From Gammaproteobacteria bacterium (GTDB lineage: Bacteria > Pseudomonadota > Gammaproteobacteria > Tenderiales > Tenderiaceae): a DNA stretch of 64,000 nt. The notes under the pieces were generated by a model that made no database searches, was not told where the DNA came from, and saw nothing but the letters and a program-made list of their open reading frames with translations. Where the stretch lies: NCBI GenBank assembly GCA_021731365.1, contig JAKFXL010000036.1, forward strand, positions 2,503 through 66,502, written 5' to 3'. The position numbers and the translations under genes were made by a program. Below, piece after piece: positions 59,132-64,000 of the stretch (its first letter is position 1; every line of letters begins with the position of its first letter).

Positions 59132-60130
59132 TCAGCTCATTAACGCCCCAGCTAACGGACTAATCACCGCATTACCACCACGGTTCAATACATGAGTATA
59201 AATTTGCGTTGTCTTCACATCGCTATGCCCCAGTTGTTCCTGCACCGTACGGATATCGGCACCGCGTTGTAACAGATGGGTTGCAAACGAATGGCGCAAT
59301 GTATGGCAGGTAGCCTGCTTTTCAATACCCGCCTTTTTTACCGCAAGCTTCACCGCCCTCTGCAGACTCTTTTCATGCAAATGGTGGCGTCTAATCACAT
59401 CAGCCCTTGGATCTTGAGTGCGCTCCCCAGCGGGGAAAATATACTGCCAACGCCACTCGCGCGGTGCGTTTGGATATTTACGTGCCAAAGCATAAGGTAG
59501 ATACACCTCGCCATAGCCATCGGCTAAATCTTTCTCGTGCAGATTTTTAACGTACTGTAAATGTCGTTTTAACTGAATGGTAAGCTCATCTGCCAGTGTC
59601 ACAATACGATCCTTGCCACCTTTGCCATCAATCACAAAAATAGCATGGTGATCAAAATCCAGATGCATTACCCGTAATCTCAAACACTCCATTAGGCGCA
59701 GACCAGACCCATACATCAAACAGGCTGCTAGCCAATGTACACCACTTAGATTCTTCAATAACCGACTAACCTCATCGACCGTTAGCACCACAGGTAGTTT
59801 TTTTCTCTCCTTGGCCCGCACAGCCCCATTAATATCACCCAGTGGCTGCGCAAGTACATGCCGATACATAAATACCAACGCATTGAGTGCCTGATTCTGC
59901 GTGGCAGGTGCAACATTTCTCTTCACAGCTAAGTAAGTTAAAAAGGCACTAACCTCCATAGCCCCCATCTCCTTGGGATGGCGCTTATTGTTAAAAATAA
60001 TAAAACGCTTGATCCAGTCAACATAAGCATGCTCAGTTCTAATGCTGTAATGTTTGGTGCGGAGCACGTTTATTACACTTTCAAGAAATGGAGATGTTAT
60101 TTTTCTGCCTGAATTCATAAAGCCACCCAT
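59132..60130 (-). CDS. intI: integron integrase IntI (tyrosine recombinase)
   Basis: '[12 protein letters not shown]...RHP', IntI-specific insertion '[20 protein letters not shown]', catalytic '[12 protein letters not shown]...YTHV'; start taken at the Met at 60130 (alternatives 60118 or TTG 60148). Confidence 0.9.
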
Positions 60131-60135
60131 ATTGA

Positions 60136-60151
60136 CTGTATATAACAACAG
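60136..60151. promoter_or_regulatory. LexA box (CTGTATATAACAACAG) overlapping the intI promoter/start
   Basis: perfect CTGT-N8-ACAG palindrome, as described for SOS-controlled integron integrases. Confidence 0.75.
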
Positions 60152-60414
60152 TACTTAATATGAGAAGTAGCTGTCAAGCATGAAAAAGGACAGATTGGGG
60201 TATTTGGCATTATATGATTAAGTGGAATCTAATGATGGGATGAGAAAAATCTACCGATACCAAAGGTACAATCATTTAACTTTCATATGCTTATGGGTTA
60301 TATCCAGTTTTATTTTGTAGTTCAGACCAGAGTCGGGTATAAATAGACAAAAAAGGAAAGACCCCAAAGTGGGGTGTTTGATTACCCCACTTTGGGGTCC
60401 ATTAACTGTTAGCC
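60152..60414 (+). other. attI region (approximate), ending at a GTTAGCC core
   Basis: AT-rich region between intI and the first cassette; candidate crossover G/TT at 60408-60410. Confidence 0.4.
60360..60398. repeat. perfect 14-bp inverted repeat (ACCCCAAAGTGGGG-9 nt-CCCCACTTTGGGGT) within attI
   Basis: read directly from the sequence; lies 10 bp before the GTTAGCC core. Confidence 0.7.
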
Positions 60415-60447
60415 CCCTATTTTTAACCCACCACGAAAGGAAATAAT

Positions 60448-60963
60448 ATGAAACTGAAACTCACGTCACTCTCCCTCATGCTCTGCGCTGGCAGTGCAAT
60501 GGCTGACACAACAGTGCAAATGTCCATGGTCGATGCAAAGGGTGTTAGCGCTAGCGTTGGACAGGTATCAATCACTGAATCAAAGTACGGCATGGTGTTT
60601 TCGCCGTCACTGAAAGGGCTTCCCCCTGGGTTGCATGGGTTCCATCTGCACCAAAACCCAAGCTGTGAGCCGAAAGAGAAGGATGGGAAAATGGTTCCTG
60701 CGTTAGCGGCGGGGGGCCACTACGACCCAAGCGATTCTAAGCGCCATGACACTCCTTGGAGTGACGGTCATCTGGGTGATTTACCCGCACTCTTTGTGGA
60801 TGCAGAAGGCAATGCTAATCAACCTGTACTCGCCCCTCGCCTAAAGACGGCAGATCTTGCAAGTCGTTCGCTGATGGTGCATGTGGGCGGAGATAATCAT
60901 GCGGATCATCCTGCTCCGCTTGGTGGTGGCGGTGCGCGTATGGTATGCGGTGTTATCAAGTAA
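60448..60963 (+). CDS. sodC: periplasmic Cu/Zn superoxide dismutase (integron cassette 1)
   Basis: signal peptide; '[10 protein letters not shown]'; '[12 protein letters not shown]'; followed by attC. Confidence 0.9.
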
Positions 60964-60965
60964 AA

Positions 60966-61029
60966 GCCTAACTCTGCATTCGAGAGGGACGCGCCAAAAG
61001 CGGCGCGCCCCTCAATTTGAACGTTAGAA
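60966..61029 (+). other. attC site 1
   Basis: R'' GCCTAAC ... internal palindrome GGACGCGCC/GGCGCGCCC ... R' GTTAGAA. Confidence 0.6.
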
Positions 61030-61082
61030 GACTTCTTGGTTGTTAATTTTAATCTGTATTACCCATGAAAAGGGAGGCGGGG

Positions 61083-62120
61083 ATGAATTTTATAAAGCTA
61101 TGTATCGCCGGAGGAATTGCATTTATTGCTAATCAGGCTTTTGCTGATGATAAAGCAGAACTCAAAGATGTTAGGTTTGAAGGGACAGATTTAGAAATTA
61201 GCAATAAGTGCGAGGGGAATCCTGGCTGGCTATGTAATAGAGAAAGTAGACTACAAGCACATAAACCAAGCACTGTAGCTTGGGAATATACTGATCAAGA
61301 TGATGGTTCTCTTGAAGTTAATTACTCTCTCAGATACATGCTTGCCAGGCCTGACTGTTCTGTAGAAAGAGATAATGACCAACGAGAATGTATAAATGGT
61401 TGGTGGAAAAGGAATGAATGGTTTCTATCTTACTCTGGTAAGTTTGATTTCTATATGGGAACACGATATTCAGGTCCTGTTGTAAATAGAATTAGCAATC
61501 CAGCTCTTCACTGGAGAATTCACAATCCATCTTTCATGGGTGGCGTGGAGTGGCTAAATATAGCGCTGGAGCATAGATCAAATGGGCAAGTTACAGATTT
61601 TGACCTAAAAGACTCTAACGGAAATTACATTGCAGATCAGCGTTGGCAAGCCGGGGACAGAGCATATATTGATGGCATAAGCCGCGCCGCAAATTATTTT
61701 TCTATTGAAATTAAAGATGGTTATAAAACGGACACTACGGCATACAACTACTGGCTTAGTGCGAAAGCATATTTTACAGATGAATCCTTGGTTACATGGG
61801 GAGATAAGAAAGGATCGGATGTTAGGATTTTGGACTACGATGTACTTCGCCTAGCTTTTGTGGGAAATAAGTTTAAGGGTGAAAATAAGCAGTTTAAGCA
61901 GTTTGAATATGGGTTTGAATACACAATGGGAATGAAGGGGTTTGCCACTGATTCATTGGATGCTTCTTTATATTTTCCCTATGTATTCGGAAAAAGAACA
62001 TATTTCCCAATTAATTATTTCAAAGTCCACGTTGGGCCAATGAATGAACTGTCTAACTACACGGAGTCACAAACAAGCATTTATATAGGTATGAAACTGA
62101 ACCCATACCCATCATTTTAA
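61083..62120 (+). CDS. pldA: outer membrane phospholipase A (OMPLA), integron cassette 2
   Basis: RBS GGGAGG; signal peptide; active-site 'HRSNG'; C-terminal aromatic residue (…PSF); markedly AT-rich. Confidence 0.75.
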   Translation: MNFIKLCIAGGIAFIANQAFADDKAELKDVRFEGTDLEISNKCEGNPGWLCNRESRLQAHKPSTVAWEYTDQDDGSLEVNYSLRYMLARPDCSVERDNDQRECINGWWKRNEWFLSYSGKFDFYMGTRYSGPVVNRISNPALHWRIHNPSFMGGVEWLNIALEHRSNGQVTDFDLKDSNGNYIADQRWQAGDRAYIDGISRAANYFSIEIKDGYKTDTTAYNYWLSAKAYFTDESLVTWGDKKGSDVRILDYDVLRLAFVGNKFKGENKQFKQFEYGFEYTMGMKGFATDSLDASLYFPYVFGKRTYFPINYFKVHVGPMNELSNYTESQTSIYIGMKLNPYPSF

Positions 62121-62135
62121 CGGAATTAACACGTC

Positions 62136-62216
62136 TTCTAACAAGCGCGTGGAGTCGGACTCGCTACGTCGGCGCTTCGCGCCGATTCCGCTCGCCGCTC
62201 ACGCGAAGAGTTAGAA
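62136..62216 (+). other. attC site 2
   Basis: R'' TTCTAAC exactly complementary to R' GTTAGAA; GC-rich imperfect internal palindrome. Confidence 0.65.
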
Positions 62217-62563
62217 CGCAAAGGCACGTTAATAATTTCAGAGAAAGCTCGGCAGTCAGTTTAAGTTCGTAGCTCTCCCATGCTTCAGCATTGTTCGGTA
62301 TTAATCGGGTGTTTAGTATTTGTGCATCTAGAAACATTGAAAGGTGGTCACTTAATCATCTCGGGCATCTTGCTTGGTAGGCTCGCCACAGTTCAGCCAA
62401 AACCTTGCATTGTTCAAGGTTGGTGGTAAGTTAAACAGTATCGTATTTATTAAGGCCAATAGGCGGAAAGTGTGGAGGTCCACTTGAAGGAAAATCGTGG
62501 CGTTGTTTGGCAAGGAGGCGTATCAGTCCTTTCTAATATCCAATTCAATCAAAACATTTTGCT

Positions 62564-62668
62564 TTCTAACCAGCGCGGTCAAGCTGACAAATTTCCGCGT
62601 TCTTCGTTTGTGCTAAATAGCACAAGCCTCTCACCGCTCCAATTTGCAGCTTACCGCGAACGTTAGGT
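62564..62668 (+). other. attC site 3
   Basis: R''-L'' TTCTAAC-CAGCGCGGTCAAGCTG pairs with L'-R' CAGCTTACCGCGAAC-GTTAGGT, leaving one extrahelical base. Confidence 0.8.
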
Positions 62669-62676
62669 GCCCATAT

Positions 62677-63072
62677 ATGTCCACGCTCGAATCAATTAAT
62701 CGGCTCCTGTCAGTCGGCGCCACGCTCCTCGATCATGCAGCGGCGGAAATCCGCGACGCGAAGCTTGAGCCTGTTCGCGAGAACATTGAGAGTATTGGCA
62801 AGGCTTTGGCCGAGGTCTTTGAAATTCAGCACCAGATTTACAAGTTAAAACCTGAACTCACGCCCGAGCACCTAAAGCAGCCCAGTGAGCACTCTGCGGC
62901 CAATCGACTTCTCACCGAGTACATGTACAACGCCTCAGAATTCGAACTCGCTGGAAACATCGAACGAGCTGTCGCAATATTCCAAGAGTTCTTGGCGCTG
63001 GAGTCGTCGCCTCTGCATCGCGACATTGCAGCCGGTGAAATTGAAAGGCTTCGGAATGCCGCAGGCACCTAA
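62677..63072 (+). CDS. hypothetical alpha-helical protein (integron cassette 4)
   Basis: 131 aa, ATG just after the attC3 crossover; ends within the next attC. Confidence 0.5.
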   Translation: MSTLESINRLLSVGATLLDHAAAEIRDAKLEPVRENIESIGKALAEVFEIQHQIYKLKPELTPEHLKQPSEHSAANRLLTEYMYNASEFELAGNIERAVAIFQEFLALESSPLHRDIAAGEIERLRNAAGT

Positions 63073-63133
63073 CATGGCGCTCAACCTCGCTCCCTTCGGT
63101 CGCTGGACGGCGCTAAAGCGCCGCCGGTTAGCT
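63067..63133 (+). other. attC site 4
   Basis: R'' ACCTAAC ... GGCGCT/AGCGCC palindromic arms ... R' GTTAGCT (a second GTTAGCA lies 11 bp further on). Confidence 0.55.
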
Positions 63134-63153
63134 CTACGTTAGCAACTAGACTC

Positions 63154-64000
63154 ATGGGCCCTGAGTACGATGACAAGTTCTTGCAGGAAACTCTAGCCCG
63201 CGCTCTCGCGGAGGAAGATAGTTACTGCGTACCTAAAGGCATCATTCGCTTTGATTACGGAAACACCCATGGCTGGTGGGTGCGCGTAAAAAGAGACAAC
63301 ACCCCGTTCCGGCAGCTATTCAGCGATGGCAATGGCAGCATTGCTGATTCGCTGAATAAAGCCATCCTGTATCGGCATGAATTGTTATCGTCATTTCCTA
63401 TGACGATCAAAGTAGCTCATAGCAGGAGCCTGCCGCTTGAACCCGAGAAACGCATATTCAGGGTAGAAGAAAAAGGTAAAAAGCAACCGTACATTGCTTG
63501 GGAAGCCAAATGGTACGACGAGAACTATGCAATAAAGCATGCGCATTTCTCGGTTAAAAAGTTTGGCGAAGATGAAGCAAAAGCTCTGGCGCTCGCAGCC
63601 GCACGCAAAAATCACAACAGACGGCCAAAACTTACAAAGATTCCTGATAACTACTTCACACACGAGTGCAAGAAAATCCTTCGCGCTGATCTTGCTGTAG
63701 CAGCCACCATTAATAGCCGTAAATCCAGCACCGCTGGGAAACAACCGTCCGAAATCATCAGCACAGACCCTTTTGCTTTTGAGGGCGAGAGGTACCTTGT
63801 TCTTCATCGTTCCATCGAGAGGGATCGGAAAATTAGAACTGCAAAATTGACCGATTTCATTCAGAAGCATGGTTCGCTTTTTTGTGAACTATGTTCATTC
63901 AGGTTTTCCGATACCTACCCCTTTCTGAAGAAAGACATAATTGAAGTGCATCATATGGTTCCGCTGTCCACATTAACAAAGGTGACAGAGACAAAACTTA
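63154..64000 (+). CDS. twin AP2-domain + HNH endonuclease (integron cassette 5, 3'-truncated by the window)
   Basis: own translation gives MGPEYDDKF...GWWVRVKRD... / ...HFSVKKFGEDEAKALALAAAR (AP2-like) and ...FCELCSFRF...EVHHMVP (HNH); the frame is open to the window end. Confidence 0.6.
   Translation, partial: MGPEYDDKFLQETLARALAEEDSYCVPKGIIRFDYGNTHGWWVRVKRDNTPFRQLFSDGNGSIADSLNKAILYRHELLSSFPMTIKVAHSRSLPLEPEKRIFRVEEKGKKQPYIAWEAKWYDENYAIKHAHFSVKKFGEDEAKALALAAARKNHNRRPKLTKIPDNYFTHECKKILRADLAVAATINSRKSSTAGKQPSEIISTDPFAFEGERYLVLHRSIERDRKIRTAKLTDFIQKHGSLFCELCSFRFSDTYPFLKKDIIEVHHMVPLSTLTKVTETKL

Follow-up and report, generated by a model that had tools for sequence, protein, structure and literature searches.

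In Escherichia coli K-12, the mcrA gene is carried on the e14 prophage-like element. Classical AP2 homing endonucleases, on the other hand, live in phages, introns and inteins, and the AP2-containing HNH enzymes among them were reportedly described by Magnani et al. in 2004. The present analysis compares both kinds of enzyme with a gene at the right-hand edge of a 64,000-nucleotide stretch of contig JAKFXL010000036.1 (positions 2,503 to 66,502 of the forward strand; assembly GCA_021731365.1, a Gammaproteobacteria bacterium of the Tenderiaceae), hereafter referred to as the window. The gene, which lies in an integron cassette, is predicted to encode two AP2-type modules followed by an HNH nuclease (AP2-AP2-HNH).

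EcoKMcrA (PDB 6ghc), a Type IV restriction endonuclease, couples an N-terminal reader to a C-terminal cutter and is encoded by a solitary gene needing no methylase, features that are all found again in the AP2-AP2-HNH protein. The two proteins also share a C-terminal HNH domain with a CxxC...CxxC zinc site and an EVHH motif, as well as a homologous connecting segment. However, the 5-methylcytosine-reading NEco domain of EcoKMcrA (PMC7145662) is absent here, and two AP2-type modules are found instead. Because this defining N-terminal reader is missing, the AP2-AP2-HNH protein is not a McrA orthologue. A further difference is the vehicle of the AP2-AP2-HNH gene, which is an integron cassette, and any modification dependence of its product would be putative.

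In classical AP2 homing endonucleases, a nuclease of the HNH_3 or zf-His_Me_endon type is accompanied by NUMOD, HTH and AP2 modules (PMC5714182). Like the protein described here, these enzymes join a nuclease of the HNH superfamily to AP2 modules that confer specificity. Nevertheless, these I-HmuI-like enzymes belong to His-Me finger group 2, whereas the present nuclease is of the PF01844/McrA type (group 1), is located at the C-terminus and has no HNH_3 match. Modification-dependent nucleases with PUA, SRA or EVE domains fused to HNH (PMC6765204), together with a protein bearing the AspBHI N-terminal domain in front of HNH (locus L070), are likewise single-gene combinations of a reader and an HNH domain; they share with the present protein the HNH type preceded by an EG...H..ER....R..K lead-in. 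Their readers, unlike AP2, are known binders of modified bases.

As regards the DNA-binding half, site-specific DNA binding has been described for AP2 domains of bacteria and phages (bioRxiv 10.64898/2026.02.23.707548). Those of the CasPRs, which are anti-CRISPR repressors, bind specific sites and have conserved arginines that are essential; their partners are CapR zinc fingers and not another AP2 domain (10.64898/2026.02.23.707548). Stand-alone twin-AP2 proteins display the same succession of HGW(W/F)VRV...FSDG and W.A.W...FSV.K.GE..A as the present protein, a unit present in 1259 representative proteins. Unlike it, stand-alone twin-AP2 proteins and CasPRs lack a nuclease and are known or probable DNA-binding regulators.

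With respect to the vehicle, integron cassettes are known to encode phage-defence genes, homologues of which also occur outside integrons without attC (bioRxiv 10.1101/2024.07.02.601719). The BRiCs phage-resistance cassettes described in that work are comparable to the AP2-AP2-HNH cassette in that small genes, in BRiCs defence genes, are carried as integron cassettes and have homologues outside integrons with attC absent or decayed, as is the case here at loci L006, L084, L086 and L090. They differ in that the paper names no AP2-HNH cassette (zero occurrences of HNH in bioRxiv 10.1101/2024.07.02.601719), the defence role of AP2-AP2-HNH being a putative one.

Domain architecture of the AP2-AP2-HNH protein

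Judging from its sequence relationships, the protein is a McrA-type HNH nuclease with a twin-AP2 unit in place of the specificity domain. Its spread is owed largely to integrons, and its function is a putative one. The architecture, consisting of two AP2 modules, a flexible linker and a McrA-type HNH domain, and the status of the gene as a cassette are regarded as highly probable. The coordinates of all features are listed in Table 1.

Table 1. Features of the AP2-AP2-HNH gene and of the surrounding integron, in window coordinates (aa, amino acid residues).
Feature	Position	Strand	Basis
AP2-AP2-HNH coding sequence, residues 1-282 of 320	63154..64000	+	translation, homologues, P0151
AP2-like module 1, aa 20-80, HGWWVRV...FSDG...helix	63211..63393	+	model, remote relatives
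AP2 module 2, aa 96-155, YIAWEAKWYD...FSVKKFGEDEAKALALAAA	63439..63618	+	Pfam AP2, model
Linker, aa 156-240: McrA-like connecting segment, disordered aa 187-212, helical lead-in FEGER..H..IERDRK.R..K	63619..63873	+	family profile, model
First half of HNH (beta-beta-alpha-metal) nuclease, zinc ligands C244/C247, catalytic H266/H267	63874..64000	+	alignment, PF01844
HNH second half (D284, C289, N291, C292, H293, H297)	beyond window		P0151, alignment
Cassette 5 (AP2-AP2-HNH), cut by window edge, full length ~1,081 bp by homology	63139..64000	+	L001
Integron integrase intI	59132..60148	-	TIGR02249 483.3 bits (cut-off 265), Phage_integrase and SAM_4 domains
Putative attI crossover core GTTAGCC, left edge of cassette 1 (sodC)	60408..60414	+	read from sequence, inferred
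attC1, closes sodC cassette, R'' GCCTAAC ... R' GTTAGAA	60966..61029	+	bottom-strand fold -15.5 kcal/mol, z -3.1
attC2, closes cassette 2 (351-aa ORF), R'' GTCTTCTAAC ... R' GTTAGAA	62133..62216	+	junction rule, fold
attC3, closes cassette 3 (no convincing ORF), R'' GCTTTCTAAC ... R' GTTAGGT	62561..62668	+	junction rule, fold
attC4, closes cassette 4 (131-aa ORF), R'' GGCACCTAAC ... R' GTTAGCA; crossover between G63138 and T63139	63064..63144	+	junction rule

The coding frame starts with an ATG at 63154 and continues for 282 codons without a stop before the window end; it was omitted from the listing of open reading frames (ORFs) because it runs off the edge. An earlier note on this DNA, made from the sequence and that listing, had recognised the frame as real and truncated, and rightly so. 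The public protein P0151 (320 aa), which belongs to the same 90% cluster as the best database match (P0001), is identical to the frame over residues 1-282; the gene is thus intact at 320 aa, extending 38 residues past the window with no downstream disruption. The motifs quoted in the note fall at aa 40-48 (GWWVRVKRD), 131-151 (HFSVKKFGEDEAKALALAAAR), 244-247 (CELC) and 264-270 (EVHHMVP). A search of 5.8 billion proteins with the window fragment returned 149 homologues (best E-value, E, 1.4e-185); the 120 listed are nearly all 300-376 aa long (three being shorter fragments) and are 46-98% identical over the whole fragment. With 149 strong homologues, the frame is therefore not a chance one. The antisense ORF at 63391-63870, which the note had considered as a possible competitor, obtained no family match better than E 0.31 and was rejected as a real gene for want of homology.

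Database entries for the relatives already list Pfam AP2 and HNH domains and bear the label "HNH endonuclease" or, in other cases, "predicted HNH restriction endonuclease", and a literature search found no paper describing or testing the AP2-AP2-HNH architecture. As far as the evidence goes, nothing sets the gene apart from the other members of this "HNH endonuclease" family, which is annotated but uncharacterised.

The evidence for two AP2 modules is uneven between them. Module 2 is matched by the Pfam AP2 model (PF00847) at 25.9-26.9 bits, the highest value being that of P0151 (aa 116-155), and two family members exceed the cut-off of 33.3 bits, namely P0005 (37.6 bits) and P0048 (35.8 bits). 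In the region of module 1, three of nine relatives match AP2 (E 0.009-0.11), and a segment of the module 1 type coincides with a Pfam AP2 stretch in P0204 (aa 19-59, 28.2 bits) and in P0171 (aa 107-160, 25.4 bits). A profile built on residues 1-158 and searched exhaustively with HMMER against 1.84 billion cluster representatives retrieved 1259 representatives, 194 of them at E<=1e-10, with matches usually spanning positions 27-152 and hence both modules. Pfam AP2 matches were present in all 17 profile relatives scanned, 11 of which scored above the cut-off, up to 217 bits with six repeats.

In the AlphaFold2 model of the whole protein (mean predicted local distance difference test, pLDDT, 80.7), two consecutive units of three strands plus a helix are predicted. 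Module 1 comprises strands at 23-57 and a helix at 63-80 (block pLDDT 77-95; pLDDT 80 when the module is modelled by itself), and module 2 strands at 101-133 and a helix at 139-153 (pLDDT > 90). When the whole model was searched with Foldseek, the top PDB matches were tandem AP2 proteins, specifically the Toxoplasma mitoribosomal AP2 proteins and the AP2 pair of Plasmodium SIP2 (PfSIP2) with DNA, aligned over ~140 columns with a probability of 0.85-0.99 and marginal E-values of 2.5e-3 to 1e-2.

Several results speak against two AP2 modules in this particular protein. Its own AP2 score remains under the Pfam cut-off (26.9 vs 33.3 bits), and its module 1 receives no direct Pfam match. The two modules display no profile-profile similarity to each other in hhalign, a result that, with only ~2.4 effective sequences, speaks neither for nor against a shared origin. 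Finally, Foldseek with module 1 alone returned nothing significant, the best match being to double-stranded RNA-binding domains (E 0.12), with AP2 and integrase arm-binding domains ranking below them. At the family level, nonetheless, the designation "twin AP2" is supported by transitive homology together with a confident predicted model. Accordingly graded, the two modules named in the earlier note fare differently: module 2 was found directly, if below the cut-off, whereas module 1 is recovered only through profile relatives and its predicted fold. In sequence terms, module 1 is best described as an AP2 variant that has diverged (HGW(W/F)VRV...FSDG...) and that never occurs without a module 2 closer to the canonical type.

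The twin-AP2 unit forms a large bacterial family in its own right, found mostly in stand-alone proteins of 130-200 aa; elsewhere it is duplicated (P0159, P0173) or fused to ribbon-helix-helix or CBM48 domains. With its 1259 representative clusters, it constitutes a widespread bacterial DNA-binding module.

The HNH motif that the note had read as CxxC...EVHHMVP is present, and Pfam HNH (PF01844) matches full-length P0151 with 32.2 bits (cut-off 21.4) at aa 244-298; the window fragment alone, lacking half of the domain, reaches no more than 12.4 bits. In a 36-sequence alignment, C244, C247, H266, H267, D284, C289, N291, C292, H293 and H297 are invariant, the four zinc cysteines being C244, C247, C289 and C292, and H266/H267 the HH catalytic pair; among these, only C244, C247, H266 and H267 lie inside the window. 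Such invariance of catalytic and zinc-binding residues argues for an active enzyme under selection for catalysis. It is also the evidence against a DNA-binding regulator or repair factor acting mainly through the AP2 pair with a non-cutting HNH domain, since the residues are retained across 36 diverse members. The stand-alone twin-AP2 proteins of 130-200 aa, in which the unit mostly occurs, and its fusions to a ribbon-helix-helix domain are regulator-like, yet a regulator of this kind is considered extremely unlikely.

The family profile over positions 159-308 aligns with residues 134-277 of EcoKMcrA (6ghc; E 2e-7, 34 bits), covering both the connecting segment, of which aa 187-212 are predicted to be disordered (pLDDT < 50, AlphaFold2 model), and the HNH domain. 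An HNH-only profile gives E 5.6e-6, and EcoKMcrA is the sole solved structure found at E < 0.01; the match stops at residue 134 of its chain, with nothing further N-terminal. No match to HNH_3 (PF13392) or zf-His_Me_endon (PF05551) was obtained at E<=1 in five family members or P0151, in which the only HNH-type match besides PF01844 was a weak one to PF13391. Many proteins, actinobacterial ones and others, combine this HNH type and its EG...H..ER....R..K lead-in with differing N-terminal domains; in one of them (L070), that domain is RE_AspBHI_N, which is found at the N-terminus of the restriction endonuclease AspBHI. PADLOC, PHROGs and NCBIfam yielded no named system for an AP2-AP2-HNH protein, weak matches being confined to the HNH region; the best in PADLOC was to mREase_IV, a Type IV methyl-directed model, weakly and over the C-terminal region only (E 1e-4 to 5e-8).

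By these comparisons, the nuclease is a McrA-type HNH domain (PF01844, His-Me finger group 1) rather than the HNH_3 domain of classical AP2 homing endonucleases. Among characterised proteins, the C-terminal half of EcoKMcrA comes closest to the nuclease and its lead-in. The formula "AP2 + HNH" covers two unrelated architectures, the homing endonucleases of I-HmuI type and the AP2-AP2-McrA-type family.

The resemblance to EcoKMcrA raises the question of whether the protein could be a modification-dependent (Type IV) enzyme, in which the twin AP2 unit would replace the McrA reader and recognise modified foreign DNA, such as methylated or hypermodified DNA of phages, leaving the unmodified host safe. 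Such a sharper version of the model would fit EcoKMcrA as the closest solved relative, the segment connecting reader and nuclease included, as well as mREase_IV as the best PADLOC match and the fusion of the same HNH type to RE_AspBHI_N. Enzymes of this kind as a rule read and cut DNA with separate domains (PMC6765204), and the gene is solitary, with no methylase in its cassette and no recurrent neighbour in 51 loci. In addition, the DNA-binding half is as conserved across phyla as the nuclease (mean column identity 65% vs 71%), which fits a generic target better than a host-specific site. On the other side, no AP2 domain is known to read modified bases, and the characterised bacterial, plant and apicomplexan ones read ordinary base sequence (10.64898/2026.02.23.707548; PDB 6sy0). 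The McrA N-terminal domain itself is absent, and the similarity is limited to the catalytic half, which is common to many unrelated nucleases. Modification dependence is therefore put forward tentatively, as a possibility of limited likelihood.

Cassette boundaries, mobility and distribution

The right-hand edge of the window falls within cassette 5 of a chromosomal integron, and the AP2-AP2-HNH gene is a bona fide single-gene cassette. Five cassettes lie downstream of intI, and all cassette ORFs are on the + strand. The boundaries, read from the sequence, obey the junction rule, by which a cassette opens with the reverse complement of the R'' box in the attC that closes it, the cores being RYYYAAC (R'') and GTTRRRY (R'). 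The reverse complement of the putative attI core, GGCTAAC, agrees with the attC1 R'' box GCCTAAC at 6/7 positions. The R'' box of attC2, GTCTTCTAAC, is the exact reverse complement (10/10) of the start of cassette 2, G/TTAGAAGAC (61023-61032; the slash marks the crossover), the comparison being that of GTCTTCTAAC with GTTAGAAGAC (10/10). For cassette 3, the R'' box GCTTTCTAAC agrees with the reverse complement of the start GTTAGAACGC at 9/10 positions, and for cassette 4 the R'' box GGCACCTAAC is again the exact reverse complement (10/10) of GTTAGGTGCC (62662-62671). With an integrase gene and four upstream attC sites that follow this rule, the assignment to an integron cassette made in the earlier note is borne out.

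The right-hand part of cassette 5 was reconstructed from relatives, the gene end being read via the identical protein P0151 and the cassette end via the 98%-identical cassette L001. The R' end of attC4, GTTAGCAAC (63138-63146), exactly complements GTTGCTAAC, the R'' box at the downstream end of the two homologous cassettes (98% and 90% identity). L001, whose DNA is 98.4% identical over 921 bp, runs from G/TTAGCAAC to the next GTTAGGC as a cassette of 1,081 bp with one ORF; in it, GTTGCTAAC, the exact complement of the cassette start, lies 37 bp past the stop, and the site closes with GTTAGGC. L101, encoding a 90% identical protein, has the same closing site. Each of these two cassettes holds a single gene and is closed by an attC of its own (GTTGCTAAC...GTTAGG) ~100 bp past the stop codon, where the earlier note had placed a possible partner gene just past the window. 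L101 is the first cassette of its array, directly beside an intI fragment, and L001 is preceded by a different upstream sequence than in the window. The same cassette thus occurs in differing array positions (cassette 5 in the window, cassette 1 in L101) and is therefore mobile.

As to secondary structure, the bottom-strand folds are compatible with attC hairpins, if unevenly so: the R boxes pair in the minimum-energy folds of attC2, attC3 and attC4, with z-scores of -1.8 for attC2, -4.1 for attC3 (-26 kcal/mol) and -0.6 for attC4, the last being no more stable than shuffled sequence; the downstream attC of L001 has a z-score of -3.0, with R boxes unpaired in its minimum-energy fold. The cassette region (60400-64000) has a G+C content of 46.3%, as against 55.7% in the rest of the window (1-59000), which is consistent with cassettes acquired from elsewhere. 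It was also observed that positions 1-170 of L001 share the attC4 of the window only from 63080 rightwards, the R'' end being replaced by unrelated sequence. This could reflect a rearranged attC, another upstream cassette with a near-identical attC, or a chimera of metagenome assembly.

Full-length members of the family are rare, with ~16 loci among 185,579 species representatives and another ~39 on metagenome contigs. The hosts comprise Delta-, Beta- and Gammaproteobacteria (Methylovulum, Thiorhodococcus, Rubrivivax), Parachlamydiaceae, Akkermansiaceae, Balneolaceae and Acidobacteria. The share of cassette-borne members was estimated with a circular-junction test, which looks for a 9-mer ending in AAC at most 120 nt past the stop, its reverse complement at most 100 nt before the start and a GTT 40-140 nt downstream, in 44 non-redundant loci with adequate flanks and 3000 random controls. 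The signature was found in 12/44 family loci vs 9/3000 controls with up to one mismatch, and in 21/44 vs 97/3000 with up to two. Roughly a quarter to a half of the family (27-48% of loci) would thus be cassette-borne, and this is a lower bound because attC sites decay. An energy-based attC detector, relying on complementary R'' and R' boxes within one site, was dropped in favour of this test, as it failed to detect known positives (L001 among them) and had a false-positive rate of 6%. By tblastn, no intI was detected within 10 kb of the genome loci except for a 30%-identical tyrosine recombinase in L004; as arrays can outreach such flanks, this negative carries no weight.

On a 3.3-Mb chromosome (L006; OW818664.1, 10001-11200), an 86%-identical member is followed by a decayed attC (TTGCTGAC ... 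GTTAACA) and, directly after it, by a terminator-like hairpin, and intI is absent from the 10 kb around it. The member has the appearance of a cassette that became fixed outside any active integron. In the Methylovulum metagenome-assembled genome (L084, 5249-7922), a member is inserted in a hydrogenase-maturation (hyp) cluster together with hicAB and a Uma2-family endonuclease gene, all of them making up a small islet of genes of mobile or selfish character. Together with L084, two other members are lone insertions among housekeeping genes, one 18 bp after dctM (L086) and one between a tonB-like gene and the mrp operon (L090).

These insertions bear on the claim of the earlier note that AP2-HNH proteins are homing or selfish nucleases, according to which a site-specific endonuclease would cut its site in genomes lacking the gene and spread by repair, the integron being just one vehicle. 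AP2 modules are indeed classic specificity domains of HNH homing endonucleases (PMC5714182), the lone insertions between housekeeping genes (after dctM in L086; beside hicAB and Uma2 in the hyp cluster of L084) would be in keeping with such behaviour, and the patchy spread over Proteobacteria, Verrucomicrobia, Chlamydiae, Acidobacteria and Balneolaceae implies horizontal transfer. The claim does not hold up well against the domain evidence, however, the HNH domain being of the PF01844/EcoKMcrA type with no HNH_3 match, and zf-His_Me_endon likewise not reported. The order is AP2-AP2-HNH and not that of an I-HmuI-like nuclease with attached binding modules. No full-length copy was present in 50,697 phage and 72,556 plasmid records, where only the HNH part finds matches, as is also the case in PHROGs, and no intron or intein context was seen. 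Moreover, homing predicts the same target gene each time, whereas the insertion sites differ and no flank recurs in 51 loci, and the mobility in 27-48% of loci is explained by attC recombination. Homing is accordingly judged improbable.

To examine the neighbourhood, every ORF of at least 50 aa situated up to 2 kb from the gene was taken from 51 non-redundant loci, 677 in all, and clustered. No family of neighbours was shared by more than 2/51 loci, and those pairs were syntenic relatives. Likewise, the precomputed Pfam annotations available for eleven loci, representing four distinct genomic contexts, included no methyltransferase among the neighbours. For the adjacent methylase or immunity gene that the note had proposed to look for, no recurrent candidate was found in the 51 loci, nor does the partner gene it had thought possible recur. 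The family is thus one that travels largely on integrons, without a conserved partner gene.

The same data weigh on the suggestion of the note that the cassette might be an addiction module, in other words a toxin stabilising the array, and on the related idea of an orphan Type II enzyme with its methylase elsewhere. Toxin-antitoxin cassettes are frequent in large chromosomal integrons, a nuclease with no guard could harm its host, and one family member stands beside hicAB. Yet the cassette is a single ORF with no second component, the antisense ORF being without homology, and no candidate antitoxin, immunity or methylase gene recurs in the 51 loci; the neighbouring cassettes 3 (without ORF) and 4 (131-aa ORF) are bounded by their own attC sites and occur independently. 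A cassette that relied on a methylase elsewhere in the genome would be lethal to the majority of new hosts, at odds with the spread across phyla. Both variants are considered very improbable.

Proposed role as a barrier to incoming DNA

The reading preferred here is that of a stand-alone, AP2-guided nuclease acting as a single-gene, restriction-like barrier to incoming DNA and spread as an integron cassette. The AP2 pair would dock on double-stranded DNA and supply specificity, and the HNH domain, tethered by a flexible linker of ~25 residues, would nick or cut nearby, as in McrA-like reader/cutter enzymes. Precedents for sequence-specific AP2 domains exist in plants, Apicomplexa and phage CasPR (PDB 6sy0; 10.64898/2026.02.23.707548). 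The host would be spared because its own DNA lacks the feature recognised by the AP2 pair, be it an infrequent sequence or something peculiar to foreign DNA, for example a modified base; the host must lack it, since no methylase, immunity or antitoxin gene travels with the AP2-AP2-HNH gene. In such a scheme, the protein would be a single-gene barrier to foreign DNA moved between bacteria by the integron.

Several points count against this barrier model. Nuclease activity, target and role are all inferred, with no characterised close homologue, and the way in which a host is spared by a sequence-guided nuclease without a methylase is unexplained. PADLOC makes no call of a known defence system, with only the HNH part matching, and weakly. 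Several family members are located among housekeeping genes and not in defence islands. Finally, cassette 5 lies ~2.7 kb from attI, so that its expression from the integron promoter may be weak. While a defence role is plausible on sequence grounds, the model as a whole, function included, is considered evenly poised between right and wrong.

Should the proposed function be right, the gene would provide a compact, partner-free nuclease of ~1 kb moved by integrons between distant bacteria, and a candidate addition to the recently recognised phage-defence integron cassettes. A more ambitious version would see in it a new single-gene anti-phage or anti-plasmid system, with the twin-AP2 unit, whose fold class otherwise serves to read ordinary sequence, as a sensor of foreign DNA, for example of a modification or of a conserved mobile-element sequence, steering the McrA-type HNH domain. 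This is unlikely, though worth stating; if true, AP2 would join the reader domains of restriction enzymes and a portable AP2-guided nuclease of 320 aa would become available. The gene is a neat case of domain swapping, if not one to surprise a specialist, and a good candidate for a defence-cassette screen.

Other cassettes of the array

The other four cassettes differ widely in content. Cassette 1 carries sodC, encoding a periplasmic Cu,Zn superoxide dismutase (60448-60963; NF007628, 209 bits), and is bounded by the upstream GTTAGCC core and the 64-bp attC1; the 90% cluster of its product has 102 members, mostly on short metagenome contigs.

Cassette 2 holds an ORF of 351 aa (61065-62120) with a signal-peptide-like N-terminus and no match in Pfam, NCBIfam, PADLOC or PHROGs. 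The ORF contains the string ALEHRSNGQ, which resembles the HxSNG catalytic motif of outer-membrane phospholipase A (OMPLA), and may thus encode a very divergent OMPLA-like cassette protein.

Cassette 3 (62211-62668) has good attC junctions and no ORF longer than 64 aa, its small ORFs being without Pfam match; it may be a non-coding or small-peptide cassette. The 131-aa ORF of cassette 4 (62677-63072) obtained weak matches only, to TIGR02267 (DUSAM, E 0.003), a YgaB-like Pfam family (E 0.043) and phrog_30545 (E 0.0067). Eleven near-identical metagenome copies of it were found, and on several Logan contigs it follows an ORF of 345 aa, similar in size to that of cassette 2, which suggests the same array order as in the window.

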